A stretch of DNA of 64,000 bases from NCBI GenBank assembly GCA_012690745.1, contig GCA_012690745.1_4086.2; one strand, given 5' to 3'. Every line of letters starts with the position of its first letter. Within the stretch, counting starts at the first letter, position 1. The translations under genes and the position numbers were made by a program. The DNA is from a phage. The notes below the pieces were generated by a model. The model ran no database searches. It worked only from the letters and a program-made list of their open reading frames with translations, and was not told the DNA's origin. Positions 25,475 to 38,298 of the stretch are shown piece after piece.

Positions 25475-25502
25475 TTGCTATTAGTTTTTAAACGCGTATA
25501 AT
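25475..25502 (+). promoter_or_regulatory. early-type sigma70 promoter
   Basis: TTGCTA-16-TATAAT. Confidence 0.45.
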
Positions 25503-25549
25503 GTTTTGCATAGGGGGAGCGGTTCCCCTGGTAACTAAGGAATAAGAAA

Positions 25550-25786
25550 ATGGTCGAACAAATCAAATCAACGTCTTCGAATGTAACGGGAACGGTAGCA
25601 CACTTTACTAGTGATGAATCGCGGGGCGTTCCCTATTGTGCTGTACATGTAAACACTGAGGGTAACTACTGGTTTACGGTTTACGGATCATATTCATTTG
25701 GACGGCCAGGGCATCAAAAAATTCTGGATAAAGTACAACCAACGGGTAAAAATATCACTGCCGAAATGTTTTATAAAAAATCATAA
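25550..25786 (+). CDS. hypothetical protein
   Basis: ORF track. Confidence 0.6.
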   Translation: MVEQIKSTSSNVTGTVAHFTSDESRGVPYCAVHVNTEGNYWFTVYGSYSFGRPGHQKILDKVQPTGKNITAEMFYKKS

Positions 25787-25789
25787 AGT

Positions 25790-25817
25790 ACTTGATAATA
25801 GTTTTTAGTACTGTATA
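25790..25817 (+). promoter_or_regulatory. early-type sigma70 promoter
   Basis: TTGATA-16-TATAAT. Confidence 0.45.
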
Positions 25818-25870
25818 ATATTTTACATCGCAAGGGGGAGCGGTTCCCCCTGGTAACTAAGGATAATCAA

Positions 25871-26170
25871 ATGAAAATTGCAATCATCGCCCTGGCTTTA
25901 TCTGTTTCCTCTTTCGCTGTTAATGCGTCGTTAGATGTAAGTAGTGAAAAATTCATTCAGTGCACTGTAGCGATGACCAATGAAAGTACTGGCGAGATTG
26001 TTTTAAAGGATTTAGAGATCCAGCCCGAAGCATTTAAAAACGGGCCGTTCCATGAAGAAGACGAAAACGGTAGCACAACAATTTATTACGATGCAAGTAC
26101 TAAACGCGGTTCGGTCACTGTAATGGATACTGAGAAAGTAACGCACACAGGAGTAATTAACTGTTTATAA
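25871..26170 (+). CDS. small secreted or periplasmic protein (predicted signal peptide)
   Basis: N-term MKIAIIALALSVSSFAVNA is a typical Sec signal. Confidence 0.6.
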   Translation: MKIAIIALALSVSSFAVNASLDVSSEKFIQCTVAMTNESTGEIVLKDLEIQPEAFKNGPFHEEDENGSTTIYYDASTKRGSVTVMDTEKVTHTGVINCL

Positions 26171-26187
26171 TCTAGTACTGAATCACT

Positions 26188-26219
26188 AGCCCACTTATAC
26201 AGTGGGCTTTTTTGTTTTT
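26188..26219 (+). terminator. intrinsic terminator
   Basis: AGCCCACT-TATAC-AGTGGGCT then TTTTTTGTTTTTG. Confidence 0.65.
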
Positions 26220-26266
26220 GTAGTATCGTAGTACTGCATACTTTGAAAATAGTTTTAAAAAAGTAG

Positions 26267-26294
26267 TTGACATTACCAGGGAAAAGCGTAGAAT
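26267..26294 (+). promoter_or_regulatory. sigma70-type promoter
   Basis: TTGACA-16-TAGAAT. Confidence 0.45.
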
Positions 26295-26408
26295 GTATTA
26301 CATCAAGACGGGGAACATTAAGTAGACCGCCAGTAAGTCGAATGAAAAACTGGACACGTCAAACAAACTTTGATAAACTAACTTAAACTTTAATTGAGGA
26401 TTTATAAA

Positions 26409-26891
26409 ATGGCTAATGTAAAATCATTTCTGAAAGCACTGATTTCTAACGATACTGTTATTGCTGCTGAATTGCTGGCTGACCTGGATAATGATACCAT
26501 GAAAGCAGTACGCAACAATTTTAACATTGCTTACAGTGAAGCGAAAGAACTACAAGCCAAAAAGGTAGCAGAACTGGAAGAACAGAAAAAAGCCCGTGAA
26601 GCAGAACTGCAAGCAACAATAGAAAGTATTCAGGCGGCGGTGTCTGGTTTAGATCTGGAAGTGGTTATTGAAATGGCACATAAAGCCCTGGCGGTTAAGT
26701 ACGGTGAAGATAAGCCGGAATCTAAGCCTAAAAAATGGATTCAAGAACGTGTTACTGTTGTCCTTGATAACGGGGAAGAACATTTGATTCCTGTACGCGG
26801 TAACTGCATTGCGGTAGTACTGGATGCAATCAAAGAAAGCGGTATGACTCGCGAGGAATGGATCGAAGCTCACCGCAAAGTTGAAGCATAA
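26409..26891 (+). CDS. hypothetical protein (coiled-coil-like, KE-rich)
   Basis: trimmed to MANVKSFLK. Confidence 0.6.
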   Translation: MANVKSFLKALISNDTVIAAELLADLDNDTMKAVRNNFNIAYSEAKELQAKKVAELEEQKKAREAELQATIESIQAAVSGLDLEVVIEMAHKALAVKYGEDKPESKPKKWIQERVTVVLDNGEEHLIPVRGNCIAVVLDAIKESGMTREEWIEAHRKVEA

Positions 26892-26912
26892 CAATTAAAG
26901 TACTGAATCACT

Positions 26913-26942
26913 AGCCCACTGTATAAGTGGGCTTTTTTGTGT
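26913..26942 (+). terminator. intrinsic terminator
   Basis: AGCCCACTGTATAAGTGGGCT then TTTTTTGTGTTT. Confidence 0.65.
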
Positions 26943-27092
26943 TTATCGTTTACCAGGCCACCAGCACCGCCTAGAATCGATTCTAACGCATTAAACTGAT
27001 TATCTGATGCATCGCCCTAGCTGGTGGCGTTAAGGTCGTTAGAATGCGATTGAGGACGTTTAAAGTATTTTGCAAAAAGTAATAAAAAGTAC

Positions 27093-27120
27093 TTGCACGA
27101 TTAAGAGATTAGCGTATAAT
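27093..27120 (+). promoter_or_regulatory. early-type sigma70 promoter
   Basis: TTGCAC-16-TATAAT. Confidence 0.5.
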
Positions 27121-27175
27121 GTTTTACATCGAGAGGGGGAAACGGTTCTCCTTCCAAATCAAAGGAATCAAAACA

Positions 27176-27403
27176 ATGGCTATCGTAATCGCTTATGTAA
27201 CTGGTACTACTGGCACTTCTTCTACTGTTGCTGTAATTACCAACAAGAAAGGTGCGGAATTACATTCTGCAATGGATACCTGGGCGGTAAATGAGTTCGG
27301 TCAGTGGGCAAGTGTAGCATATGTTGAAACCTATCAAGTGCCAACCATTAGCTTAACGGATCTCGGTGTAGATCGTATCCTTTGCCTGGATGAATTAAAT
27401 TAA
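27176..27403 (+). CDS. hypothetical protein
   Basis: trimmed to MAIVIAYVTG. Confidence 0.6.
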   Translation: MAIVIAYVTGTTGTSSTVAVITNKKGAELHSAMDTWAVNEFGQWASVAYVETYQVPTISLTDLGVDRILCLDELN

Positions 27404-27411
27404 AAAAGTAC

Positions 27412-27439
27412 TTGCAAAGTAAATCAGATAAAGTATAAT
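27412..27439 (+). promoter_or_regulatory. early-type sigma70 promoter
   Basis: TTGCAA-16-TATAAT. Confidence 0.5.
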
Positions 27440-27489
27440 ACATTACATCAAGGGGAGAAATGGTTCTCCCTGATAATGAGGAAACTAAT

Positions 27490-27633
27490 ATGAAAACTTG
27501 TCAATGTGGTAAAAAATCTATTACTGGTTTAAAGCGGGGCGTTGCTCTTTGCCAGTACCATTATAATTTACAAGTATGGGGTAAAGAATGGGCCGACCAG
27601 GTGGAAGCAGCAAAGAAAGCAAAAAGTAAGTAA
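27490..27633 (+). CDS. small Cys-containing protein (47 aa)
   Basis: manual ORF MKTCQCGKKS...; SD GAGGAA. Confidence 0.45.
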   Translation: MKTCQCGKKSITGLKRGVALCQYHYNLQVWGKEWADQVEAAKKAKSK

Positions 27634-27653
27634 AATTATTATCACAGTACTAT

Positions 27654-27681
27654 TGACATAGATTGATAGTACTGGCATAAT
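27654..27681 (+). promoter_or_regulatory. sigma70-type promoter
   Basis: TTGACA-16-CATAAT. Confidence 0.5.
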
Positions 27682-27714
27682 AGATTTTATCAAGACAACT
27701 AAGAGGAAATTAAA

Positions 27715-28059
27715 ATGGCTAATATCAACACTATCGCAAAACAAAATATCAACCTGTCTTCTGTTGAAGTTGTACATATTGCCGCTCGGCGTTGGTTCCA
27801 GGCTTCATATGGTAACACTTATTTCTCTTTAAGTGTAGACGTAGAAATTGATGGTAATTTTATTGAAGTAGTAAACGTGCCGTTCCAATATGGATACGGG
27901 GATCACTTTGACACTGTAGCAATGGAAGAATTTAGCAAGGTTATTAATATGGAAGATAAAGAGTTTTTACGCGGTTCTTATCTTTCCCGTTTTTGCCGTG
28001 ACAATAATATCACTGTTTACAGTTCGGTAACTGATGTTAAACGCAAAAAAGATCTTTAA
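27715..28059 (+). CDS. hypothetical protein; paralogue of 34629..34952
   Basis: shared RW..GNTY..YGYG...RKKD(L/M) features. Confidence 0.6.
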   Translation: MANINTIAKQNINLSSVEVVHIAARRWFQASYGNTYFSLSVDVEIDGNFIEVVNVPFQYGYGDHFDTVAMEEFSKVINMEDKEFLRGSYLSRFCRDNNITVYSSVTDVKRKKDL

Positions 28060-28139
28060 TTAGCTTTACTTTATGCAGATACTTTGATACAGTGTCTGCA
28101 TAGGGGAAAGAAATTAAATCAACTTAAGAGGATAGTAAA

Positions 28140-28409
28140 ATGAAAAATATCAGTACTTTAATCGATGCAGGTACACATGTTCGTCGGTCTATGGTTGCAA
28201 CCAGTTCTACAAAACAAGTACCAAGCGGTTATCTTGTATTTGTGCACGATGGAAAACTCCTGGAACGTTCAATCAATTTTGATGTTAAAAACAATTGCCG
28301 TTTTATTATCTTTAAGCGTGAACAATATAAAATTGATTTGCCAGCGAAGCCCATTAGCGGGGCGTACAGCGTACAATCATTGTTTGAGCGTCAACCTTAC
28401 ACCTATTAA
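28140..28409 (+). CDS. hypothetical protein
   Basis: ORF track; SD AAGAGGA. Confidence 0.55.
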   Translation: MKNISTLIDAGTHVRRSMVATSSTKQVPSGYLVFVHDGKLLERSINFDVKNNCRFIIFKREQYKIDLPAKPISGAYSVQSLFERQPYTY

Positions 28410-28460
28410 TCAAAACATCGTTAGCGGTCGATTTAGGCCGCTTATATTGGGGATTATACC

Positions 28461-28733
28461 ATGAACGTTAATCAAGTACTGAATGAGATCGAAAGCATCA
28501 TTAAACCGATGAAGCGTACTGATGCTATGTTAACACCGGAAGAATGCCGCCTTTATGAGCGTTACAGCGTCGAACAAGTCCAGGCAATGGCTATGGCTAC
28601 CCCAGCCGTTTCACCGCCTGAGAATGCGTTACAGGACGTTACAGGGGATTATATCATTAATCCAGTACTAGGGAAGATGACTGCAATCACCGAAGATCAA
28701 AAAGACTACTTAAGCCAGTACTTAAAAGGTTAA
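28461..28733 (+). CDS. hypothetical protein
   Basis: ORF track. Confidence 0.55.
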   Translation: MNVNQVLNEIESIIKPMKRTDAMLTPEECRLYERYSVEQVQAMAMATPAVSPPENALQDVTGDYIINPVLGKMTAITEDQKDYLSQYLKG

Positions 28734-28738
28734 TTAAT

Positions 28739-28948
28739 ATGCTTACTGTACAGGATAAGATCGACATCTTAAAGGTTAATATGTATGTGATTGATGCCGT
28801 ACCTGGTAAAGTATTTGCATACGATGACACCACTGTAAGCAATTTCTACTATAGCCAGGACGTGGGGGATCTTTCTGTACAGTCGGTTATTGAAAATGTA
28901 GTTAATGCAGCGTATGAGCATTTACTTTCAAATAGTACTTGCAATTAG
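28739..28948 (+). CDS. hypothetical protein
   Basis: ORF track. Confidence 0.5.
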   Translation: MLTVQDKIDILKVNMYVIDAVPGKVFAYDDTTVSNFYYSQDVGDLSVQSVIENVVNAAYEHLLSNSTCN

Positions 28949-28966
28949 TTTTTAAACGCGTATAAT
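28939..28966 (+). promoter_or_regulatory. early-type sigma70 promoter
   Basis: TTGCAA-16-TATAAT. Confidence 0.5.
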
Positions 28967-29017
28967 GTTTTACATGAAGGGGAGAAATGATTCTCCCCAC
29001 TAATTAAGGAATATGAA

Positions 29018-29164
29018 ATGAAAGCATCAAAAAAGAGTAATACTAAGAAAGCATGTTCACCTTTCGCTGGGGTATTCCCTTTACGTTTCGTTGATGAAGT
29101 GGTTTCCTACCCGCCGGGCCTTACTCCTGAGATGGTAGAAAGTTTGCGTAAATCTAAAAAATAA
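29018..29164 (+). CDS. small basic protein (48 aa)
   Basis: manual ORF MKASKKSNTKK... Confidence 0.4.
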   Translation: MKASKKSNTKKACSPFAGVFPLRFVDEVVSYPPGLTPEMVESLRKSKK

Positions 29165-29167
29165 TAC

Positions 29168-29195
29168 TTGCAATTAGTTTTTAGTACTGTATAAT
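29168..29195 (+). promoter_or_regulatory. early-type sigma70 promoter
   Basis: TTGCAA-16-TATAAT. Confidence 0.5.
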
Positions 29196-29245
29196 TGTTT
29201 ACATAGAGGGGGAAATGGTTCTCCCCTGATACAAGGAGAATCAAA

Positions 29246-29398
29246 ATGAAACAATATAATGCTCGGTTTGATGTTACTATCGGTAACGGCAAAGGTCAAT
29301 TTTCTTTCAGTACTCGACGCAGTTATACAGAAAACTTCCTGCGTAATTGTGCACTGACCGCCGCTCAAATTAAACATTATTTTCAGGCTAAAAAATGA
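29246..29398 (+). CDS. small protein (50 aa)
   Basis: manual ORF MKQYNARFDV...; SD AAGGAGAA. Confidence 0.45.
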   Translation: MKQYNARFDVTIGNGKGQFSFSTRRSYTENFLRNCALTAAQIKHYFQAKK

Positions 29399-29484
29399 AA
29401 TCATTAGCTTATTACAGTTCGGCCCTGGTCGGTGCATTGATCGCGGCGTTGTTAGTAACCTATCTATTCTTTATGGTGATTTAA
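29395..29484 (+). CDS. small hydrophobic peptide (29 aa)
   Basis: manual ORF MKSLAYYSSALVGALIAALLVTYLFFMVI; ATGA overlap. Confidence 0.35.
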   Translation: MKSLAYYSSALVGALIAALLVTYLFFMVI

Positions 29485-29622
29485 ATGAATCCTAACGGTA
29501 TAATTTACAGTACTCCTAAAACGAAAGCAGATAAAGCGAAAGCACGTAAAGCGAAAGTAAAGGAGTACATCAAGCAAGGCATGACGCGAAAGGCGGCGAT
29601 TCTGAAAGCTAAAAATAAATGA
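29485..29622 (+). CDS. small lysine-rich protein (45 aa)
   Basis: manual ORF MNPNGIIYSTPKTKADKAKARKAK... Confidence 0.35.
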   Translation: MNPNGIIYSTPKTKADKAKARKAKVKEYIKQGMTRKAAILKAKNK

Positions 29623-29630
29623 AAAAGTGG

Positions 29631-29660
29631 TTGACTTCGGTCAGCCATTTTGCTATTATA
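29631..29660 (+). promoter_or_regulatory. repeated hairpin-promoter module, copy 1
   Basis: TGGTTGAC-TTCG-GTCAGCCA hairpin overlapping TTGACT-18-TATTAT. Confidence 0.45.
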
Positions 29661-29763
29661 TATTCATTGAGAGATAGCTCACTAGCCCACAGGGTGCAGG
29701 AGTGTATCTATTGTATAATGATTGAGTACAGAAAACTATTTTAAAGTATTTGATAAAAAGTAC

Positions 29764-29791
29764 TTGCATACTATCTCAATAGGCGTATAAT
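29764..29791 (+). promoter_or_regulatory. early-type sigma70 promoter
   Basis: TTGCAT-16-TATAAT. Confidence 0.5.
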
Positions 29792-29842
29792 GTTTTACAT
29801 CGCAAGGGGAAACGGTTTCCCCTGGTAATAAGGAAACGAATC

Positions 29843-30184
29843 ATGACTATTGCAATTGCTCAATCTAACTTTGAAAACGAAATCATCGCTCAGGCACTGC
29901 GTTTAAATGATGGTCGGGCCGAAATCAATTACGGTTTCAATAGTGGTGGATGTGAAAAATATCAGTACTTTGTAACGGCTGATGGCTGTGTCCTGGGTAT
30001 CAATACAGTTATTGTAAACATTCAGAAAATTAATTTCAATGATCCAGACGATAGCCAGTTTTACATCACGGGCGTAGACGTGAACTATGAGGATGACTCA
30101 CTAACTGATGATCACACTGGCGAGAAGTTAGAAAGTGCATACGGTGAAGATGATTATCAGTCCGGTCCAGAAGATTTCGAATAA
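29843..30184 (+). CDS. hypothetical acidic protein
   Basis: ORF track. Confidence 0.6.
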   Translation: MTIAIAQSNFENEIIAQALRLNDGRAEINYGFNSGGCEKYQYFVTADGCVLGINTVIVNIQKINFNDPDDSQFYITGVDVNYEDDSLTDDHTGEKLESAYGEDDYQSGPEDFE

Positions 30185-30198
30185 TATTAAAAAATAGT

Positions 30199-30226
30199 TT
30201 GACAATAGTTTTTAGTACTGTATAAT
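30199..30226 (+). promoter_or_regulatory. early-type sigma70 promoter
   Basis: TTGACA-16-TATAAT. Confidence 0.55.
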
Positions 30227-30279
30227 AGTTTACATCAAGGGGAGAATAGTTCTCCCCACTAACAGAGAGAGAAAACAAA

Positions 30280-30492
30280 ATGGCTAATATCCGCACTGTA
30301 CTGAAAAATGCAAAACAAGTTTTATTTTCTGATCATGAAAATTTCAACAAGGATATCACTGGCGTTCGGAATATCAAAGATGTAAAAAATGTTATGGGTA
30401 TCTATTGCAATATGAAACGTGTTGGCACGTTCGGCGATAAAGTACTATACCAGGCAGGGGATTACAATTTTACACTGACTATCATTAACTAA
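30280..30492 (+). CDS. hypothetical protein
   Basis: ORF track. Confidence 0.6.
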   Translation: MANIRTVLKNAKQVLFSDHENFNKDITGVRNIKDVKNVMGIYCNMKRVGTFGDKVLYQAGDYNFTLTIIN

Positions 30493-30511
30493 AAATATTA
30501 TCACAGTACTA

Positions 30512-30540
30512 TTGACAACGTTTGATAGTACTGGCATAAT
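30512..30540 (+). promoter_or_regulatory. sigma70-type promoter
   Basis: TTGACA-17-CATAAT. Confidence 0.5.
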
Positions 30541-30583
30541 AACTTTTATCAAGACAACGCATATTAATTTAAGGAATACTAAA

Positions 30584-30763
30584 ATGGCTATTATCGCAAA
30601 AACTGAAATCATCGGCCTGGATTCTATCATCATGACGTTTGAAGATCAAAAAGGGATGTATGTAGTTTCCTATGGTGATTATGTTCGGGAGTATGAAACA
30701 GTAGACGAAGCCTTTGAAAGTTACATTCGCCAGGTTAATAAAGCATACGACGATTACCGCTAA
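30584..30763 (+). CDS. hypothetical protein (59 aa)
   Basis: trimmed to MAIIAKTEI; SD AAGGAA. Confidence 0.5.
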   Translation: MAIIAKTEIIGLDSIIMTFEDQKGMYVVSYGDYVREYETVDEAFESYIRQVNKAYDDYR

Positions 30764-30790
30764 AATATATTACCAGTACTATTAAATCTA

Positions 30791-30818
30791 TTGACAATGT
30801 TTGATAGTACTGTATAAT
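30791..30818 (+). promoter_or_regulatory. early-type sigma70 promoter
   Basis: TTGACA-16-TATAAT. Confidence 0.55.
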
Positions 30819-30862
30819 AACTTTTATCAACAGTAGTTAACTTAACCTAAGAGAGAAAAATC

Positions 30863-31006
30863 ATGACAGCATTAGATTCATTCATCGACGCAGTACTGGC
30901 AAAAACTGGCGAGGATCTGACCGCAGAACAATACGCGATGATCGAGCAATGCCAGCAAAACGGTAAATCGGTGAAAGATACTGTTAAGATTATCCGCAAG
31001 ATGTAA
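30863..31006 (+). CDS. small protein (47 aa)
   Basis: manual ORF MTALDSFIDAVLAK...; SD AGAGAGAA. Confidence 0.4.
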   Translation: MTALDSFIDAVLAKTGEDLTAEQYAMIEQCQQNGKSVKDTVKIIRKM

Positions 31007-31012
31007 GATTAT

Positions 31013-31040
31013 AGCCCACTGGTTAACGCTGGTGGGCTTT
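31013..31040 (+). terminator. terminator-like hairpin containing a Chi octamer
   Basis: AGCCCACTGG-N6-CTGGTGGGCT then TTT. Confidence 0.4.
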
Positions 31041-31111
31041 AATCATTTACCCTATACAATGCCAGTACTAAACCGTTTAACTCGTTAGAATGCGTTACAG
31101 GACGTTTAACA

Positions 31112-31309
31112 ATGATTAGCATGAAATCAGTACAAAAACAAATAGAAACATTATCAAAAATTAAACGTAAACAGTACTCCTTAGAATATACAATCAATGG
31201 TAACTATCATCTAATGAAAGAAAATAATTTTATAGTCATTGATGAATCATTGCAGATCATTAGTATAGTACTGAAAGCATTAATCAATGACAGAAAAAAG
31301 TTAAAATAA
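31112..31309 (+). CDS. hypothetical protein
   Basis: ORF track. Confidence 0.5.
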   Translation: MISMKSVQKQIETLSKIKRKQYSLEYTINGNYHLMKENNFIVIDESLQIISIVLKALINDRKKLK

Positions 31310-31314
31310 TCTAT

Positions 31315-31343
31315 TGACAAATTATGCCAGTACTGGCATAATA
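31315..31343 (+). promoter_or_regulatory. sigma70-type promoter
   Basis: TTGACA-17-CATAAT. Confidence 0.5.
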
Positions 31344-31638
31344 CTTACATCAAGACGAGAACGTCACTAACCCATAGGGTGCACAAATGTAACTATATAA
31401 TATCGATCAATAAATGATCAAAAAAGTACTGGATCAATTTAGCATAAGGCGTATAATTCTGATCAAATCTTGATCAAAGGCAATAAACGTAGTTGAAATT
31501 ATATAGAAAGTACAAAGGCGTTACCATTCGTGGTAATGCTGGGGAATATGTAGTATCATACGGTTTGAATAAAATCAGTACTAGTAGTATTATTGTAGCA
31601 TTACAGTACTATAGTATTTTTATAATGAGGTTAAAATA

Positions 31639-31896
31639 ATGGCTGTTGGATTCGCGAAGGACGGGGCCGAGCAAGACGAGATTAACGCAGTGATTCAGGC
31701 CGCTGTAAACCACGCTAGAACGCAAATTAACGCACAAATAGAATCACTGATACATTGCCTCGACTGCGGCGATAAAATCCCTGAGAATCGCCGCCTGGCC
31801 GTTAAGGGGTGTAAGTACTGCATCACTTGCCAGGCTGATCATGATAGCATATTCAAACGCAATCCCCGTAATTGTTGGCATAGATCTATGAGATAA
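31639..31896 (+). CDS. TraR/DksA-family C4 zinc-finger protein (putative)
   Basis: C-x2-C-x17-C-x2-C (HCLDCGDKIPENRRLAVKGCKYCITC); SD TGAGG. Confidence 0.55.
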   Translation: MAVGFAKDGAEQDEINAVIQAAVNHARTQINAQIESLIHCLDCGDKIPENRRLAVKGCKYCITCQADHDSIFKRNPRNCWHRSMR

Positions 31897-31902
31897 AAAG
31901 TA

Positions 31903-31930
31903 TTGACAGTGCTGTTAGTTAGTGTATAAT
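31903..31930 (+). promoter_or_regulatory. early-type sigma70 promoter
   Basis: TTGACA-16-TATAAT. Confidence 0.55.
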
Positions 31931-31959
31931 ATTTTATATCTTAACTGAGGATTGAAATC

Positions 31960-32316
31960 ATGGGTATACAACATATCACGCGTACTACAGACAATGGTGA
32001 GATCACTGGCTATCAAGTACAAGGCAAAGTAGCACAATTGCAGTACTGGTTTGTTAAACGTGGCATTGTTGCACCGGATCTTGATTATGATCGTGTAGCG
32101 TTTATTGATTCTCTTTATGTTGATCCCGATAATCGCGGTAACGGTGAAGGTACTGAATTAATGAATGCCTTTATTGATGCCGCCGATGATTCAGATTGTA
32201 TCATCTTAGAATGCGATACGGGAGAAGATAACGAGTTTAATCTTAAAGAATGGTATGAAAGTTTTGGTTTTGAAGTACTGATTAACTGTGAATATCCTAT
32301 AATGATTTTATCCTAG
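31960..32316 (+). CDS. possible GNAT-like acetyltransferase-fold protein
   Basis: IDSLYVDPDNRGNGEGTELM resembles GNAT motif A (R-x-x-G-x-G); weak. Confidence 0.5.
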   Translation: MGIQHITRTTDNGEITGYQVQGKVAQLQYWFVKRGIVAPDLDYDRVAFIDSLYVDPDNRGNGEGTELMNAFIDAADDSDCIILECDTGEDNEFNLKEWYESFGFEVLINCEYPIMILS

Positions 32317-32319
32317 TAC

Positions 32320-32347
32320 TTGCATTTAGTTTTAAGTACTGTATAAT
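32320..32347 (+). promoter_or_regulatory. early-type sigma70 promoter
   Basis: TTGCAT-16-TATAAT. Confidence 0.5.
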
Positions 32348-32395
32348 AGTTTACATGAAGGGGAGAATAGTTCTCCCCACTACAAGGAAAGACAA

Positions 32396-32584
32396 ATGCA
32401 AAACTTATCAAGTATTTTAGTACAAGATGATTTTGGTAATCCTGGAAGTGCTATCATCGTTCGGGGCAATAAGGCAACGTTTGTTATTGCTGGTGGACCT
32501 GTACAGCGTAGCATTAAAAACAATGCAGTTACAATCAATAATGTTCGCTATCGCTTAGATAAAGAATTGATTCATAAACTGTAA
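32396..32584 (+). CDS. hypothetical protein
   Basis: ORF track. Confidence 0.55.
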   Translation: MQNLSSILVQDDFGNPGSAIIVRGNKATFVIAGGPVQRSIKNNAVTINNVRYRLDKELIHKL

Positions 32585-32611
32585 TATTAATTTAATAGAG
32601 GATAAAAATAA

Positions 32612-32935
32612 ATGTATATTCATACTACTATCACAAAAGAAGTTCGTTGTCAATTCGAAAGTATCCCTGGTGTATGTTTCATTACAGGCACTTTCTCACC
32701 TGGTGACCGTGATAATCCAGTACTGTTACAGTTACGCCATCCATTATGGGATAAAGCATTTGATCTGCCGTTGAATGAATTCGCAACCACTGCTGATAAG
32801 TACATTAAAAATATTCGCGAGAATGATTGCCTATTCATTAATGCTTTTAGTGATGCCGCGTTAAGTGAGATCCATGCTGTATTGGTTGCAATCATGGAAT
32901 CAATGGAGAAAACTAAATTCAAACAAGGTGAATAA
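32612..32935 (+). CDS. hypothetical protein
   Basis: ORF track; SD AGAGGA. Confidence 0.6.
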   Translation: MYIHTTITKEVRCQFESIPGVCFITGTFSPGDRDNPVLLQLRHPLWDKAFDLPLNEFATTADKYIKNIRENDCLFINAFSDAALSEIHAVLVAIMESMEKTKFKQGE

Positions 32936-32941
32936 AAACTA

Positions 32942-32969
32942 TTGACAATGTAATCTAGTACTGTATAAT
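32942..32969 (+). promoter_or_regulatory. early-type sigma70 promoter
   Basis: TTGACA-16-TATAAT. Confidence 0.55.
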
Positions 32970-33018
32970 AGTTTACATGAAGGGGAGAAATGATTCTCCC
33001 CACTAAGAGGAAAGAAAC

Positions 33019-33231
33019 ATGCAAGGTCAACTAATCGTTCGTAAATGGTCTGATACTAACGAAAAACCGTGGGATGTTCAATATATCGGACCGGACGGTG
33101 TTTCACGTTATCAACCTGGCGTAACGCATAGTACTGAGCAATATGCCGCCGCTCACCGTGAACGCCTGTTAGAATCTATGAAACAGGGATTCTGTGAAAA
33201 ATTCATTCAAGATCATTGGCTGAAAGATTAA
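33019..33231 (+). CDS. hypothetical protein
   Basis: ORF track. Confidence 0.6.
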   Translation: MQGQLIVRKWSDTNEKPWDVQYIGPDGVSRYQPGVTHSTEQYAAAHRERLLESMKQGFCEKFIQDHWLKD

Positions 33232-33248
33232 TAGAAGGAGTACAGCTT

Positions 33249-33341
33249 ATGCAAATGAATCCGATGATTGTTGTGTTAGCTGTACTTATGATCATTCATG
33301 CCATCGTAGAAGTACTAACACAATCAGGAGTAATACAATGA
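33249..33341 (+). CDS. small hydrophobic peptide (30 aa)
   Basis: manual ORF MQMNPMIVVLAVLMIIHAIVEVL...; strong SD AAGGAG. Confidence 0.4.
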   Translation: MQMNPMIVVLAVLMIIHAIVEVLTQSGVIQ

Positions 33342-33508
33342 TCCAAGTAGAATTATCAGTACTGAAAGATCTGTTTTATCGGTTAGGCACTACTGGCGAA
33401 TACCCTAAAGGGGATACTGCTAAACTATACATTGCATTGGATGTATGGCAACGTAATGAACTGGCTAACGCCTGGCGTAAAGGTAAATCAGAGGGGATTG
33501 CAGCATGA
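33338..33508 (+). CDS. small protein (56 aa)
   Basis: manual ORF MIQVELSVLKDLFYRLG; ATGA overlap. Confidence 0.4.
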   Translation: MIQVELSVLKDLFYRLGTTGEYPKGDTAKLYIALDVWQRNELANAWRKGKSEGIAA

Positions 33509-33654
33509 AAGAATTCTTATTCGAAGTAGTGTTCCAGGGCGTAGGAAGTAACCAACTGATTCGATCAAGTGGTTACAATGTTAACCAGGCATGGAATAAC
33601 ATTAAACAAATGTACCCGAACGCTATCACATATCGCAACCCAAAACAAGTTTAA
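33505..33654 (+). CDS. small protein (49 aa)
   Basis: manual ORF MKEFLFEVVFQGVGSNQ; ATGA overlap. Confidence 0.4.
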   Translation: MKEFLFEVVFQGVGSNQLIRSSGYNVNQAWNNIKQMYPNAITYRNPKQV

Positions 33655-33672
33655 AAAGATTTAAAAAAGGGA

Positions 33673-33701
33673 TTGACTCCGGTCAGTCCCTTTGCTATTA
33701 T
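33673..33701 (+). promoter_or_regulatory. repeated hairpin-promoter module, copy 2
   Basis: GGGATTGAC-TCCG-GTCAGTCCC hairpin overlapping TTGACT-17-TATTAT. Confidence 0.45.
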
Positions 33702-33801
33702 ATATGCATAGAAACAATCTAACCCACAGGGTGCATAAATGTATCTATTATATGCTGGTGGCTAGTACTATCAAGTACTGAAAACTATTTTTAAAAAGTA
33801 C

Positions 33802-33829
33802 TTGCATTGTACTTAGAATCAAGTATAAT
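33802..33829 (+). promoter_or_regulatory. early-type sigma70 promoter
   Basis: TTGCAT-16-TATAAT. Confidence 0.5.
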
Positions 33830-33917
33830 GTTTTACATCAGGACGGGGAACGAAATAAGTAACCCCGTTAAGTAGTCCAGGAGTAAGACATACGAAAACC
33901 TCCCCTGATAAAATAGT

Positions 33918-33945
33918 TTGACAATAGAAATTAAACGAGTATAAT
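33918..33945 (+). promoter_or_regulatory. early-type sigma70 promoter
   Basis: TTGACA-16-TATAAT. Confidence 0.55.
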
Positions 33946-33975
33946 ACTTACATCAACCACAAAGAGGAATACAAA

Positions 33976-34176
33976 ATGAAACATTTTACTTTCGGTGTAG
34001 TAGGCTTTACAGTATCCAGCGGCGTTTATAAATCAGAACGCGGTGCTAAAAATGCAGCAAGTCGGGCGTATGGTTCACAGCGTGACTTACAGGTCGGTTA
34101 TATTAGTAACATTAATAACATGTTTATTCCTGTTTCACAGCGTAAAGCGGGTAACATGAAATGGGAAACAATTTGA
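33976..34176 (+). CDS. hypothetical protein
   Basis: ORF track; SD AGAGGAA. Confidence 0.6.
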   Translation: MKHFTFGVVGFTVSSGVYKSERGAKNAASRAYGSQRDLQVGYISNINNMFIPVSQRKAGNMKWETI

Positions 34177-34185
34177 TAAAATAGT

Positions 34186-34213
34186 TTGACAATAGTTTTT
34201 AGTACTGTATAAT
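34186..34213 (+). promoter_or_regulatory. early-type sigma70 promoter
   Basis: TTGACA-16-TATAAT. Confidence 0.55.
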
Positions 34214-34265
34214 ATTTTACATCAAGTGGGGAATAGTTCCCCACCTAACAAAGAGAGAAATTAAA

Positions 34266-34541
34266 ATGCGGATTCTACTGACAGCTAACGAAATCGAGCA
34301 AGTACTGACTACTAACCTGGAAGACTGGAAACGTGATGCAGATATCCAGGCGGTGCAATGGCTCAATGATAAGTTAACGCCGGATGATTTAAGTAAGATT
34401 GTAGATCCACAATTCTATGAAGATATTCACGACACGGCTTTAAGCGTCGAGGATGTACTTGATAAGCACTACATTGATACTGATTTACATGTTTACGGTC
34501 GTAAAAACTTTATCACTATTCACGACATTTACAATACTTAA
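34266..34541 (+). CDS. hypothetical protein
   Basis: ORF track. Confidence 0.6.
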   Translation: MRILLTANEIEQVLTTNLEDWKRDADIQAVQWLNDKLTPDDLSKIVDPQFYEDIHDTALSVEDVLDKHYIDTDLHVYGRKNFITIHDIYNT

Positions 34542-34544
34542 GTA

Positions 34545-34572
34545 TTGACAAAGTATCTTAGTACTGTATAAT
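34545..34572 (+). promoter_or_regulatory. early-type sigma70 promoter
   Basis: TTGACA-16-TATAAT. Confidence 0.55.
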
Positions 34573-34628
34573 AGTTTACATCAAGTGAGGGGAATGGTTC
34601 CCTTCCTAACAAAAAGAGAGAAATTAAA

Positions 34629-34952
34629 ATGACTATGATCCTTGCCCAGAAAGTAGAAATGAAAATTGTAACTTCCTTTGACATTAAAGTTAATCGGTGG
34701 ACTGATAGCCACGGCAATACTTACCACTCATGCTACGTGTCTGCATTGATTGGTGACCGCTGGGAAGACCTGGGACATGAAACCTTTACTTACGGTTACG
34801 GTACACAAGGCGAATACACGGGCTTGGAGATCATTAAAGAAACTGTAATAGGTTTCAACCCGAAAGAGAAAGTACTACACAGAATTGAGGATGAGATCAA
34901 CAAAGAAATTACAGTTCGTTACTACGATGTAAAACGTAAAAAAGACATGTAA
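34629..34952 (+). CDS. hypothetical protein; paralogue of 27715..28059
   Basis: ORF track. Confidence 0.6.
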   Translation: MTMILAQKVEMKIVTSFDIKVNRWTDSHGNTYHSCYVSALIGDRWEDLGHETFTYGYGTQGEYTGLEIIKETVIGFNPKEKVLHRIEDEINKEITVRYYDVKRKKDM

Positions 34953-34974
34953 TAGAATCCATTTAAAGTACTAT

Positions 34975-35003
34975 TTGACATTGCCCAGATAGTACTTTAT
35001 AAT
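34975..35003 (+). promoter_or_regulatory. sigma70-type promoter
   Basis: TTGACA-17-TATAAT. Confidence 0.55.
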
Positions 35004-35051
35004 AGACTCTAACTTGTAGTACTAATTAACTTAACTAATAGGATGTACACC

Positions 35052-35447
35052 ATGATTACTAAATTCTTCGCTACCCGTGAACAAGCTCGCATCGTTGCTC
35101 GTGAAGAAGGTGAAACATTTAAAGACATGGGCAAAGATGCACCGAAAGGACAACGCTGGGCGGTACAGTTCAAAGAGATCTCTGATATTGTGAATTCACC
35201 TGAGCCTGTACTTACTGAAGCAGAACTAAAGCAAGCTCAAGAACTGGCTGAAGTACTGAACGCTCAAGATGACTTTTTGAAAGGTTCTGATATTGAAGTT
35301 ACAGTTAACGCAAATGCATGGACTCACGCGGATCACCTGGCAAACCTTAAGCGTCCAAGTGAACTGATTCGTAACCAGAAAGAGATCCGTCATGACCGTA
35401 AAGGAAACCGTGTAACAGTATACAGTAAACGCCGCCAGGTTATCTAA
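35052..35447 (+). CDS. hypothetical protein; paralogue of 22571..22837
   Basis: trimmed to MITKFFATREQARIVAR. Confidence 0.6.
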   Translation: MITKFFATREQARIVAREEGETFKDMGKDAPKGQRWAVQFKEISDIVNSPEPVLTEAELKQAQELAEVLNAQDDFLKGSDIEVTVNANAWTHADHLANLKRPSELIRNQKEIRHDRKGNRVTVYSKRRQVI

Positions 35448-35469
35448 TAACTTTGCAGTACTAACAACA

Positions 35470-35496
35470 CGGCGGGTTCAGTTCCCGCCTTTTTTT
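35470..35496 (+). terminator. intrinsic terminator
   Basis: GGCGGG-TTCAGTT-CCCGCC then TTTTTTT. Confidence 0.6.
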
Positions 35497-35511
35497 ATAG
35501 GATAAACTAAA

Positions 35512-35766
35512 ATGATGAAGGTACAACTATCTAAAGATAATATCTTGCGGGTACACTATAAAGCACCACAGAGAATCATCACAAAGGCCGTACAGCTTGC
35601 TAATGAGTTTATTAATGGTAGTCTATTACCCAGGAAGTTAAGCAACGGGAAACTACGTGTTATCGATGTAGACACTAACAATAGAATAGTAATTGAGAGT
35701 ACTGGAAAAATTAATCTATATGAACACCAACAATACAATAAAAAAATAAAACTAATATCACGTTGA
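35512..35766 (+). CDS. hypothetical protein
   Basis: ORF track. Confidence 0.55.
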   Translation: MMKVQLSKDNILRVHYKAPQRIITKAVQLANEFINGSLLPRKLSNGKLRVIDVDTNNRIVIESTGKINLYEHQQYNKKIKLISR

Positions 35767-35791
35767 CAGTACTCAATTGTTTTAGTATTAT
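35764..35791 (+). promoter_or_regulatory. sigma70-type promoter
   Basis: TTGACA-16-TATTAT. Confidence 0.5.
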
Positions 35792-35822
35792 GTATCTATA
35801 CCAACACAGAGAGAGAAACAAA

Positions 35823-36041
35823 ATGAAATTATCTAAAATCGAAAAGAAAACTATTGATGAAGCAGTGAAGCACGGTTATACCTTTCGTAATGATTCACAC
35901 TTCACCAGTTTTCAACAGGGAAACCGTACCATCAAAAAACTCATTGATAAAGGTTTACTCACTAAGGTTGATAACGGGAACGGTGTAGAATATCAACCGA
36001 CAGAAGACGCATTATCACTAAAGAAATATTCTATTATCTAA
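35823..36041 (+). CDS. hypothetical protein
   Basis: trimmed to MKLSKIEKK; SD AGAGAGA. Confidence 0.55.
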   Translation: MKLSKIEKKTIDEAVKHGYTFRNDSHFTSFQQGNRTIKKLIDKGLLTKVDNGNGVEYQPTEDALSLKKYSII

Positions 36042-36042
36042 T

Positions 36043-36070
36043 TGACAGTACTCAAATGTTTTAGTACTAT
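36043..36070 (+). promoter_or_regulatory. sigma70-type promoter
   Basis: TTGACA-16-TACTAT; near-duplicate of the 35764 promoter. Confidence 0.5.
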
Positions 36071-36098
36071 GTACGCATACCAACACGGGGAAAACAAA

Positions 36099-36341
36099 AT
36101 GATTACTTTAGAAAAACGTATCAAAGAGACTACAACGCTGGTGGAACTGTTAACCGTTCTTAAATGCCGGGTAACTCCATTCAGTACACCGGACTTTATC
36201 AACATGGTGGACGTTAACGGTCGATATCGTATTGCGGTCGAACAAGGTACGGCAAAAGTATTCAGTACTAAAAATACGCGTGAAGTATTCCACGCAGTTC
36301 AAGTAAAAAAAGTAGTTGCCATTGATAGTAAAGTACTGTAA
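36099..36341 (+). CDS. hypothetical protein
   Basis: trimmed to MITLEKRIKE. Confidence 0.55.
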   Translation: MITLEKRIKETTTLVELLTVLKCRVTPFSTPDFINMVDVNGRYRIAVEQGTAKVFSTKNTREVFHAVQVKKVVAIDSKVL

Positions 36342-36372
36342 TATAGTTTCATTAACTCAAGGAGTCAACACA

Positions 36373-36957
36373 ATGCGTAACTATACTAAATTCATCCGTT
36401 CACTTCATGCAATGGAAACCAACAAAGAGATCCTTTCAGCTTGTCGGTTAGCTGGACTGGAGATCGTCGGTGCGGGTTCTTCCCGTATTGTATTCGCTTT
36501 AAATGATCGGTTAGTGATTAAGGTCGCGAATTGTGATGCGGGTGTAGAACAAAATGAAACTGAATGTAAGGTATGGAATTTTTTAGATTATGACCGTCCG
36601 CACCTTAAACAGTTCTTTGCCAAGGTGCATATGCATTTAAGCGATCCTGATAATATGTTTATCGTTATGGATCGGTTGAGTACTGCAAGCAAAGGCAGTG
36701 TAAAGCACGTTAACGCGTGCAACGAATTAAAGTACAATATTAAACGTAATGCAATTGAACGCCAGCACCGCTTTGCTGATGCACTACAACACGTTGATGA
36801 TACACTGTCAACACTAACGATAAGAGATATCAGAAAACAGAATATCGGCCAGGATCGCAACGGCCTTATTAAAGTACTTGATTACGGTTTAACCCGCAAT
36901 ATCTGGAATCAGTACTATAAAAAGCGGGATGTAAAAGCCGTAACTATAACACGATAA
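36373..36957 (+). CDS. protein-kinase-like protein (putative Ser/Thr kinase fold)
   Basis: G-loop VGAGSSRIVF, Lys in VIKV, catalytic-loop-like IRDIRKQN, DYG in place of DFG, with kinase-like spacing; SD AAGGAG. Confidence 0.55.
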   Translation: MRNYTKFIRSLHAMETNKEILSACRLAGLEIVGAGSSRIVFALNDRLVIKVANCDAGVEQNETECKVWNFLDYDRPHLKQFFAKVHMHLSDPDNMFIVMDRLSTASKGSVKHVNACNELKYNIKRNAIERQHRFADALQHVDDTLSTLTIRDIRKQNIGQDRNGLIKVLDYGLTRNIWNQYYKKRDVKAVTITR

Positions 36958-36975
36958 AAAAGATTAAAAAAGGGA

Positions 36976-37004
36976 TTGACTTCGGTCAGTCCCTTTGCTA
37001 TTAT
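36976..37004 (+). promoter_or_regulatory. repeated hairpin-promoter module, copy 3
   Basis: GGGATTGAC-TTCG-GTCAGTCCC hairpin overlapping TTGACT-17-TATTAT. Confidence 0.45.
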
Positions 37005-37098
37005 ATATTCATTGAGAGATAGCTCACTGACCCACAGGGTGCATAAATGTATCTATTATATAAGTATTCAGTACTGAAAACTATTTGATAAAAAGTAC

Positions 37099-37126
37099 TT
37101 GCATTGTACTTAGAATCAAGTATAAT
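37099..37126 (+). promoter_or_regulatory. early-type sigma70 promoter
   Basis: TTGCAT-16-TATAAT. Confidence 0.5.
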
Positions 37127-37178
37127 GTTTTATATCGAGAGGGGGAAATGGTTCTCCCTGGTAATAAGGAATAAAATC

Positions 37179-37400
37179 ATGACTACAATGACTTGCATTT
37201 ACGCTTCCAATCTTCTGAATGATGCGGCCTTTAATGTTGATTCAGAATATCAATGTTATCGGGATGAAAATAAAAAAGTTTTTGTAGTTGATAATAATGG
37301 TTTCCATATTGAATTACAATCCGGTTTCACTGGTGTTGATGGTAAATCAGTGTGGGGCGTACAGGATGATAAAGGCACATATCATTTTAAACGTAATTAA
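37179..37400 (+). CDS. hypothetical protein
   Basis: trimmed to MTTMTCIY; SD AAGGAA. Confidence 0.55.
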   Translation: MTTMTCIYASNLLNDAAFNVDSEYQCYRDENKKVFVVDNNGFHIELQSGFTGVDGKSVWGVQDDKGTYHFKRN

Positions 37401-37403
37401 GTA

Positions 37404-37431
37404 TTGACAAAGTATATCAGTACTGTATAAT
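37404..37431 (+). promoter_or_regulatory. early-type sigma70 promoter
   Basis: TTGACA-16-TATAAT. Confidence 0.55.
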
Positions 37432-37486
37432 AGTTTACATCAAGGGGAGAATAGTTCTCCCCACACCAATAAAAGGAAACAAAATT

Positions 37487-37759
37487 ATGTCCAGCTACTC
37501 CGCTACTATGATCATTAAAGATATGAACGGTAATCCTACTTCTGCTGGTGGATCATTTGGAAATATTAACTTAGATGGGCGGTTATCCATGCAATCAGCC
37601 ATCGATACAGCGAAAGAAGTTTTTAAGAATGAATGTACTGTTAGTAAGCTGGATTATATGGGATTCGCTATCGAGAAAACTACTCGTTTTGTGAACTACA
37701 AAAATCCACTGATGATTGATACTAACCTGAAAGCTAACGAAGTGGGGTACTTATTATGA
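37487..37759 (+). CDS. hypothetical protein
   Basis: ORF track; SD AAAGGAA. Confidence 0.6.
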   Translation: MSSYSATMIIKDMNGNPTSAGGSFGNINLDGRLSMQSAIDTAKEVFKNECTVSKLDYMGFAIEKTTRFVNYKNPLMIDTNLKANEVGYLL

Positions 37760-37947
37760 CAGTAGAAGAAGTAAAAAAAGTACTGGCAGTACTACGATAT
37801 CATAATCATTGCAAGGTGAAGAATGATCCTGATTATCTCGATTCATCCCTGGAGGAAGACACCTTAAACGCGATAAGCCATATGCAAACATTAGCAAAGC
37901 GTATGACCGAAAAGAATAGGCCGGACTATATCGGAAATAAAATTTAA
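37756..37947 (+). CDS. hypothetical protein
   Basis: ORF track; ATGA overlap. Confidence 0.55.
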   Translation: MTVEEVKKVLAVLRYHNHCKVKNDPDYLDSSLEEDTLNAISHMQTLAKRMTEKNRPDYIGNKI

Positions 37948-37954
37948 AAAGTAC

Positions 37955-37982
37955 TTGCATTGTAGTTAGATTAACGTATAAT
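37955..37982 (+). promoter_or_regulatory. early-type sigma70 promoter
   Basis: TTGCAT-16-TATAAT. Confidence 0.5.
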
Positions 37983-38034
37983 GTTTTATATCGAGAGGGG
38001 GAAATGGTTTCCCCTCAAGTCCAGGAGATACACC

Positions 38035-38298
38035 ATGAACGCTATTGAAATCACTATCAATGCACACGTATACGACAACGTAGTACTGCAAACTACTATG
38101 ACCGCTAACGATACCAGTACTTTGCGGAATACTGTTATTAGTGCCGTATGTGCTGCAATCGGTGATGTATCCCTGGAAAATGCAGAACATATCAACAACG
38201 GTTTCACTATGTGCAAGCGTGATAACGCAAAACATATCATCGTAGAAGGTTACGGCGGTGTAGAATTTAATGTTTATATGAAAAAAGTACTTGCATAA
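38035..38298 (+). CDS. hypothetical protein
   Basis: trimmed to MNAIEITIN; SD CAGGAGA. Confidence 0.6.
   Translation: MNAIEITINAHVYDNVVLQTTMTANDTSTLRNTVISAVCAAIGDVSLENAEHINNGFTMCKRDNAKHIIVEGYGGVEFNVYMKKVLA

Follow-up and report, generated by a model that had tools for sequence, protein, structure and literature searches.

A YbiI-type zinc-finger protein of the DksA/TraR family encoded by a jumbo phage related to Escherichia phage 121Q

Small phage proteins that bind the RNA polymerase (RNAP) secondary channel can reprogram the host without ppGpp. The contacts involved have been described for TraR. In the C4 globular domain of this protein, R48 contacts the beta' rim helices, and E46, R49 and K50 contact beta'Si3 (PMC9239242; PMC6970531). 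The C-terminal helix touches the beta lobe-Si1, and the N-terminal helix carries a DxxDxA tip that gets to the RNAP active site (PMC9239242; PMC6970531), with residue S2 located 4.3 A from the catalytic Mg2+ (PMC6970531). The DxxDxA motif is essential for the activity of TraR and of lambda Orf73 (PMC9239242) and likewise for that of DksA, in which the tip residues are D74 and A76 (PMC4010833). Five phage homologues of TraR have been tested, and all of them bind RNAP, act as inhibitors at rRNA and r-protein promoters and complement the loss of dksA; by this route lambda Orf73 brings about a 3- to 4-fold increase in burst size (PMC9239242). All homologues tested to date bear DxxDxA, and their sources are temperate phages, a likely prophage or the F plasmid.

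A second branch of the family is represented by E. coli YbiI. At high level this protein rescues dksA auxotrophy, a result reported as 'data not shown', and the same authors guessed at a role in iron metabolism (PMC2613031). A text search for a published RNAP-binding experiment on any YbiI-type protein found none, the search being swamped by ytterbium(II) chemistry.

The protein analyzed here is encoded by an ATG-initiated open reading frame (ORF) at positions 31639..31896 (+ strand, stop codon included) of the window, that is, the whole 64,000-nt stretch of phage DNA that was analysed. The ORF list gives 85 amino acids plus stop, and the product is annotated as an 85-aa DksA/TraR-family (YbiI-type) zinc-finger protein from Pfam, PHROG and NCBIfam matches and from its tblastn identity to gp294 of phage 121Q. 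A GAGG Shine-Dalgarno sequence, the ribosome-binding site, is read at 31627..31630 (+), 8 nt before the ATG. The cysteines are arranged as C40-x2-C43-x17-C61-x2-C64 within the segment HCLDCGDKIPENRRLAVKGCKYCITC (residues 39-64, nt 31753-31830). A fifth cysteine, C58, lies inside the finger spacer and is C or V among homologues; a second metal site formed by C58, C79, H81 and H68 was considered and rejected, since C58 is V in many of them.

A six-frame scan of the whole window for C-x2-C-x15-19-C-x2-C returned the zinc-finger gene and one antisense frame only, and no occurrence was found across 30 shuffles. The antisense string, at 11941, is spurious, as it lies opposite a real 392-aa gene. With a single genuine site in the window, none in the shuffles and a Pfam E-value of 2.2e-11, the C4 pattern of the 31639..31896 product is not due to chance. 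Phage copies of the gene with quite different GC content at third codon positions (GC3) still share 65-75% amino-acid identity, and comparison with the orthologue of phage vB_Ec-M-J gives a dN/dS of ~0.18. This ratio shows that the gene is under purifying selection and, together with conservation at the protein level despite the GC3 differences, it establishes the ORF as a real gene.

The profile PF01258 (zf-dskA_traR) matches residues 39-68 at E 2.2e-11, its 44 bits exceeding the gathering score (24.9), and the four-cysteine arrangement of that family is present in the protein. PHROG 54, 'DksA-like zinc-finger protein', is matched at E 7e-19. The top NCBIfam model is the YbiI equivalog NF008243, whose score of 79.2 bits falls below the cut-off of 96 because the match is limited to residues 1-71. 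The models for the TraR subfamily (TIGR02419, 50.1 vs a cut-off of 59.7), for TraR (NF010268, 30.4 vs 108) and for DksA (NF033459, 13.7 bits vs 105) all remain below threshold. A sequence search of the PDB ranks E. coli YbiI (2KGO, E 3e-11) first, followed by RNAP-bound TraR (5W1S/6N57, E ~1e-5).

The two branches were also compared by hhalign, using 92 YbiI-type sequences and 23 TraR/Orf73-type sequences. For the latter set a word-indexed protein search gave close F-type TraR alone, and ORFs of lambda, phiCTX and a Vibrio phage were added from tblastn. The profiles align without gaps at 99.4% probability, with query residues 17-73 placed over TraR 14-70. Membership of the DksA/TraR family is secure, and the protein falls on the YbiI-type branch. 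An earlier note on this DNA had read a C-x2-C-x17-C-x2-C arrangement and a TraR/DksA-type protein from the sequence; the exact spacing is there, and the family call is right, being borne out by the profile search that the note had proposed (PF01258, above threshold), by PHROG 54, by the YbiI and TraR matches in the PDB and Foldseek searches and by hhalign. That the protein is of the YbiI type rather than the TraR type, as these sequence comparisons indicate, goes beyond that note.

The C4 zinc finger spans codons 40-64 (31756..31830, +), as delimited by the Pfam match, the invariant columns and the hhalign register, and includes the stretch I47-P48-E49-x-R51-R52. This stretch is in register, with no gaps, with I44-P45-E46-x-R48-R49 of TraR. 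The residues I47, P48 and R51 and the four cysteines are invariant; among the 92 YbiI-type sequences, arginine is retained at position 51 in 92 and at position 52 in 89, and glutamate at position 49 in 72. The equivalents of TraR R48 and of E46/R49 are present in the phage protein as R51, E49 and R52.

The largest departure from TraR is located at the N-terminal tip, MAVGFAKDGAEQ (codons 1-12; 31639..31674, +), where a YbiI-family motif, recognized by its conservation in the 92 YbiI-type sequences, stands at the place of DxxDxA. The tip follows the family pattern MAxG[F/W]xxDGA and, at the very N-terminus, reads M-A-x-G-[F/W]-x-x-D-G-A-x-Q. Within the 92-sequence set G4 and an aromatic residue at position 5 are each found in 92/92, D8 in 80, G9 in 73, A10 in 77 and Q12 in 75. 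DxxDxA is absent from the protein; in the hhalign register D3, D6 and A8 of TraR fall on A6, G9 and E11. The motif is carried by 0/44 phage-clade proteins and by 4/149 family representatives, and is present in lambda Orf73, phiCTX orf39 and one Vibrio phage homologue. Judging from these alignments, the YbiI-type tip is not a degenerate version of the TraR tip but a different, strongly constrained motif common to the phage protein and bacterial YbiI. In the same register the N-terminus runs 3 residues past that of TraR. Equating D8-G-A10 with D6-E-A8 of TraR or D74-R-A76 of DksA, as half of the DxxDxA motif, is not claimed; it needs a 1-residue shift from the ungapped alignment, and is further weakened by the Asp, which wanders between positions 8 and 10 among family members.

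A second distinctive element is the C-terminal tail, FKRNPRNCWHRSMR (codons 72-85; 31852..31893, +), which is specific to the phage clade, invariant within it as FKRxPRNCWHRSMR and predicted to be disordered (pLDDT 48-63). It aligns as a derived form of (Y/F)NRRGSKDSQLR, with a CWH insertion and a shared R...S-[M/L]-R. The latter sequence, the canonical YbiI tail, is not found as such in the zinc-finger protein; it is retained in bacterial YbiI, in the YbiI-type protein of RaK2 and in those from phages of Erwinia, Proteus, Acinetobacter, Aeromonas and Klebsiella.

An AlphaFold2 model generated from 52 homologues (mean pLDDT 72.6, moderate confidence) displays a helix at residues 6-29, a zinc-finger region with a short helix at 49-54, a helix at 62-70 and a disordered tail at 71-85. 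The long N-terminal helix (codons 6-29; 31654..31725, +; 24 residues, pLDDT 75-78) is the predicted counterpart of TraR-N residues 2-27, the limits given for TraR in PMC6970531, and a single helix of ~25 residues ahead of the finger, as found in TraR, is predicted here with moderate confidence. The post-finger helix, by contrast, has ~9 predicted residues (62-70) vs 16 in TraR (58-73), and is followed by the disordered, conserved tail. Foldseek searches of the PDB placed 2KGO and 6N57_M on top, with a target-normalised TM of 0.55, and RNAP-bound DksA (7KHI_M) as a weaker match. The modelled architecture is TraR-like.

The genomic setting bears on when the protein would be made. Immediately upstream lies a 48-aa ORF from the ORF list (31493..31639, +), which corresponds to 121Q gp293 and PHROG 38664, has no assigned function and is kept among close relatives only. 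The TAA stop of this ORF and the start codon of the zinc-finger gene share a base (TAATG), and this overlap suggests that the two genes are probably co-transcribed and translationally coupled. The gp293-gp294 unit is likely driven by a sigma-70-type promoter found by the promoter scan at 31314..31342 (+), TTGACA-17-CATAAT, which matches 11/12 consensus positions, has an extended -10 TG and belongs to repeat family D3. Repeat family and sequence point to a possible second promoter-like element of family D8 at 31421..31457 (+), with the -10 sequence TATAAT at 31452-31457 and a poor -35; this repeat, in the leader, lies within a group of five GATC sites (TGATCAA sites). Directly after the stop codon, promoter scan and repeat family reveal a perfect consensus promoter (TTGACA-16-TATAAT; 31903..31930, +), which would start the next unit, beginning with a GNAT acetyltransferase gene at 31960-32316, and would mark the downstream edge of the gp293-gp294 unit.

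These promoters are part of a larger array. Repeated cassettes consisting of TTGACAAT, a spacer and TATAAT, often with a GGGGAGAA...TTCTCCCC hairpin, crowd the region, and the + strand has 29 sigma-70 promoters with at least 11/12 consensus positions, vs 2.1 in shuffles, which cluster at 20.4-39.4 kb of the window. Searches with Rfam at gathering thresholds found no structured RNA in the whole window, and no tRNAs were found. In the sister phage vB_Ec-M-J the orthologue is located at 12,349, inside an annotated direct terminal repeat of 21.5 kb; transferred to the window from the position of the orthologue, this repeat would extend over ~19.3-40.8 kb. Terminal-repeat genes of the related jumbo phage PA5oct are early, and its infection is rifampicin-sensitive and dependent on host RNAP (PMC7318152). 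In an E. coli jumbo phage compared by its authors with 121Q and PBECO4, a sigma factor is expected to use host RNAP (PMC11895373). Promoter density, the vB_Ec-M-J repeat and the two related phages make early transcription of the zinc-finger gene by host RNAP a well-supported reading. The 'early block' of the earlier note is thereby upheld, with 29 promoters where ~2 are expected and the orthologue inside a terminal repeat.

On balance we favour, by somewhat better than an even chance, a regulator that binds RNAP and alters host transcription early in infection. Host RNAP would produce the YbiI-type protein very early, by way of the strong sigma-70 promoters of the Asteriusvirus terminal-repeat block. 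Like TraR, the protein would dock at RNAP's secondary channel, with its 24-residue N-terminal helix extending along the channel in the direction of the active site. By filling the channel it would alter the kinetics of transcription initiation and keep out DksA, GreA and GreB. What the analysis itself shows is the family, the class of fold, the retention of the RNAP-docking residues, promoters of early type around the gene and purifying selection; binding to RNAP is a reasonable inference. The regulatory outcome is more weakly inferred, because the tip is the YbiI-family G-[F/W]-x-x-D-G-A and not DxxDxA, and because a conserved basic tail appears to stand in place of the TraR C-helix. The suggestion of the earlier note, that host transcription might be retuned through the secondary channel, is the best inference from the present analysis and agrees with the experiments on five phage TraR homologues (PMC9239242).

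Several observations count against this model, namely the absence of DxxDxA, the scores below the TIGR02419 and NF008243 cut-offs, the short post-finger helix and the mean pLDDT of 72.6. The literature also holds a precedent against it: RSP0166 and SMc00049, C4 proteins of the DksA/TraR family that lack an intact DxxDxA among other missing features, do not act like DksA. In view of these two proteins, TraR-like regulation cannot be assumed for the zinc-finger protein.

A different output is envisaged by the alternative that survives best, which we regard as rather unlikely: the protein would bind RNAP by its finger as a plug of, or a competitor for, the secondary channel and, without DxxDxA, would trigger no TraR/DksA allosteric programme. 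In one form it would exclude DksA/ppGpp, GreA and GreB, as does Rnk, the precedent for a pure competitor; in another, the G-aromatic tip would act differently on the active site, with an effect on elongation or pausing as one example. In both forms the phage would shield its transcription from the stringent response of the host. The combination of conserved docking residues with a tip that is completely different from that of TraR yet strongly conserved (glycine at 4 and the aromatic residue at 5 throughout, D8 in 80/92) fits this view, and plugging or competition could follow from an N-terminus that extends 3 residues past that of TraR, whose S2 comes as near as 4.3 A to the catalytic Mg2+. 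Against it stands the reported rescue of dksA auxotrophy by YbiI, which suggests some DksA-like output and is more in keeping with the favoured regulator.

The tail raises the further question of whether YbiI-type proteins target something other than RNAP. The zinc finger would then serve as a scaffold, and a conserved partner, for example the ribosome, a nucleic acid or a factor linked to stress or iron, would be bound by the invariant tip together with the basic tail at the C-terminus. The sequence (Y/F)NRRGSKDSQLR hardly varies between E. coli and the phages of Acinetobacter, Aeromonas and Erwinia, and has no counterpart in TraR, implying a constrained interaction that has not been described for TraR; in addition, ybiI is a gene of the sigma-S regulon without an assigned function, for which a link to iron has been suggested (PMC2613031). 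Nevertheless, we consider this reading improbable. The positions at which YbiI and TraR are most conserved coincide exactly with those contacting RNAP in TraR structures, and the end of lambda Orf73, for which RNAP binding is proven, reads ...KQRGSK, similar to how the YbiI tail begins. Moreover, no alternative partner is known, and no conserved neighbour gene was found that would hint at one.

A search with a 2-kb segment surrounding the ORF found 39 phage records, every one a jumbo phage (347-386 kb) of E. coli, Salmonella or Shigella, and the position of the gene is conserved across the Asteriusvirus hits. Escherichia phage 121Q (Asteriusvirus) is matched with 99.1% identity over 81% of the 2-kb query, and by tblastn the zinc-finger protein is 100% identical to 121Q gp294. 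A DksA-like assignment is already known for this protein, as RefSeq labels 121Q gp294 (YP_009101881.1) a "DksA-like zinc-finger protein".

Farther afield, a profile search run exhaustively over 1.84 billion cluster representatives revealed 2,241 relatives at E <= 1e-3, including 246 at E <= 1e-10; one 50%-identity cluster only carries the phage-type tail. By tblastn, relatives occur in 974/50,697 phage records. The 60-80% identity band includes Tevenvirinae, e.g. Gaprivervirus UPEC07 and Kanagawavirus PEi26, where the gene is found in the tk-vs-nrdC region with small accessory genes around it. A search beside the homologues in five other phage lineages did not find a conserved partner gene of the kind that QisA is to TraR in VP882, and the ORFs flanking those homologues show no similarity to gp293 or to the GNAT gene. 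This lack of conservation of the neighbouring genes between lineages indicates that the zinc-finger gene moves as a single cassette. PADLOC returned no defence or anti-defence match for the zinc-finger protein or its two neighbours.

The ORF also stands out by composition. Its GC content is 0.484 and its GC3 is 0.512, compared with a GC content of 0.351 for the window and a GC3 of 0.25-0.29 for the neighbouring genes, and only 0.13% of 258-nt windows are equally GC-rich. The GC3 of the homologues is 0.45 in vB_Ec-M-J and 0.29-0.38 in all other phage homologues examined; metagenomic clade members have values of 0.35-0.38. The excess of GC at third positions suggests that the gene was acquired horizontally, and relatively recently, from a donor richer in GC. 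In a search for the donor, no DNA match was found in 5,426 complete E. coli genomes, and all plasmid matches were below 60% amino-acid identity and of the bacterial YbiI type. Amino-acid composition accounts for part of the excess GC in the ORF.

The foreign look of the gene (GC3 0.51 vs 0.25-0.29 in its neighbours) and its place in a hyperplastic block of small accessory genes would suit a recently acquired passenger without a role in infection, or a spurious ORF, a reading made highly improbable by the dN/dS of 0.18, by the constant position across Asteriusvirus hits, by clade members in unrelated Tevenvirinae that remain 65-75% identical despite a fully ameliorated GC3, and by the Shine-Dalgarno sequence and promoter that the gene has of its own.

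As a piece of genome annotation the gene is ordinary and already in RefSeq. Its residual interest lies in the YbiI branch, which is little studied, has an invariant tip and tail of its own and occurs widely among T4-like and jumbo phages. These phages carry a branch different from that of the homologues tested so far, one in which the RNAP-docking residues are kept and combined with a separate tip and tail. A more tentative reading is that YbiI-type proteins may constitute a functionally distinct class of RNAP secondary-channel factors, recruited repeatedly by large phages for control of host RNAP and unlike TraR in mechanism. The class would be marked by two features, an invariant G-aromatic-x-x-D-G-A tip at the N-terminus, where DksA/TraR have DxxDxA and the Gre factors DxxExA, and a conserved basic tail at the C-terminus. 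Its recruiters might include Asteriusvirus, RaK2-like and Erwinia jumbo phages and many T4-like genera, taken here as virulent, and the Asteriusvirus/Tevenvirinae clade may have evolved its own tail variant, PRNCWHRSMR; as a whole, this reading is less likely than not. A function for the phage protein would annotate the gene in hundreds of phage genomes, and would help to assign the function of E. coli YbiI.

A comparison with the described members of the family summarizes the position of the phage protein. With E. coli DksA (151 aa) it has the Pfam zinc-finger domain in common. It is half the length of DksA, with a single helix, and lacks the coiled coil and the ppGpp-binding residues; the features that define DksA proper, i.e. 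a coiled coil with a DxxDxA tip, the residues of the ppGpp site and a length of ~150 aa, are not found in it.

The resemblance to the TraR type is closer. F TraR, lambda Orf73, P2 Orf82, VP882 Orf61 and VHML Orf8 are built in the same way, with a helix at the N-terminus, then a globular C4 domain and then a C-terminal segment. The TraR-type proteins and the phage protein share the finger spacing and the equivalents of E46, R48 and R49, and belong to mobile elements or phages of Proteobacteria. The phage protein differs in the lack of DxxDxA, in an N-terminus 3 residues longer and in a predicted C-terminal helix that is shorter and followed by a conserved basic tail. The carriers differ as well: the tested TraR homologues are from temperate phages or a likely prophage, whereas this gene is found in a 121Q-type jumbo phage and related genes in T4-like phages. 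Jumbo phages of the 121Q type and T4-like phages are taken as lytic.

The best relative both in the PDB and in NCBIfam is E. coli YbiI (2KGO, NF008243), which is ~44% identical to the phage protein. The two proteins, of 88 and 85 aa, respectively, have in common the tip MAxG[F/W]AxDGA, the helix, the C4 finger and IPExRR. They diverge at the C-terminus, where the YbiI tail YNRRGSKDSQLR is replaced by FKRxPRN-CWH-RSMR, and in their setting, YbiI being the product of a sigma-S-regulated chromosomal gene of stationary phase and the phage protein being phage-borne and, as judged from its context, probably expressed early. The nearest counterpart of all is 121Q gp294, which has the same neighbours as the gene in the window, with gp293 upstream and the GNAT acetyltransferase downstream. 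The window differs from 121Q by an additional ~0.4 kb with a 107-aa ORF slightly downstream, and the orthologues of other Asteriusvirus phages are 84-94% identical.

The near-consensus sigma-70 promoters of the window are almost all restricted to positions 20378-39387 on the plus strand. This block agrees in size and position with the annotated 21.5-kb direct terminal repeat of the sister phage vB_Ec-M-J, whose counterpart is inferred to lie at approximately 19300-40800. The window probably spans a genome terminus in a permuted record.

A 76-nt cassette is present in six copies in the window (29149-29224, 30180-30255, 30772-30847, 32301-32376, 32923-32998 and 34167-34242), and in every copy AGTTTACATCAA comes after a consensus sigma-70 promoter (TTGACAAT...AGTACTGTATAAT). 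Five copies, all but the one at 30772, continue with a GGGGAGAATAGTTCTCCCC hairpin in the 5' leader, and this hairpin may serve in the stabilization or processing of the transcript. The minus-strand "ORFs" with GENYSPLHVNYYTVLKT are the cassettes in translation. A second composite repeat, made of the repeat families D10 (61 nt), D6 (35 nt, CTAACCCACAGGGTGCA...) and D8 plus D9, occurs as two full copies, at 29610-29814 and 33652-33852, upstream of the ORFs at 29843 and 33976, respectively, and as one partial copy at 31367-31457, upstream of gp293, the 48-aa ORF that precedes the zinc-finger gene. It may constitute an alternative promoter and leader module.

The leader that extends from the 31314 promoter to the start of gp293 contains five GATC sites inside 75 bp (31404-31477), four of them within the heptamer TGATCAA, and the cluster overlaps a weak promoter-like repeat. 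Across the whole window TGATCAA is not enriched (10 observed versus approximately 15 expected), and the clustering is, therefore, local. The cluster may represent a Dam/SeqA-sensitive or operator-like element.

Directly downstream of the zinc-finger gene, a GNAT-family acetyltransferase gene (31960-32316) has its own perfect consensus promoter; its product is short (118 aa), and the match to PHROG 1249 is confined to residues 40-106. A 107-aa ORF of PHROG 3566 (32612-32935) lies in a stretch of approximately 0.4 kb that fEgEco12, Ecwhy_1 and others possess but Escherichia phage 121Q lacks, so the window belongs to a close relative of 121Q and not to 121Q itself. Apart from the zinc-finger gene, just two ORFs of the window are strongly GC-rich, 22535-22837 (100 aa) and 21730-22149 (139 aa), in which 258-nt windows reach a GC content of 0.52, and these are possibly further early genes gained horizontally.

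Klebsiella phage RaK2 has an unannotated YbiI-type ORF (L006 292-561) between ORF263 and ORF264, which ends in the canonical YNRRGSKDSQLR tail and probably starts at a non-ATG codon. The orthologue is likewise unannotated or called hypothetical in UB, CMSTMSU and JNE01. The C-terminal end of lambda Orf73 (L004 229-453), ...SKQRGSK, is similar to the initial half of NRRGSKDSQLR, the tail of YbiI, and, judging from this sequence likeness, the tail may be linked to the C-terminal segment of Orf73, a proven RNA polymerase binder.
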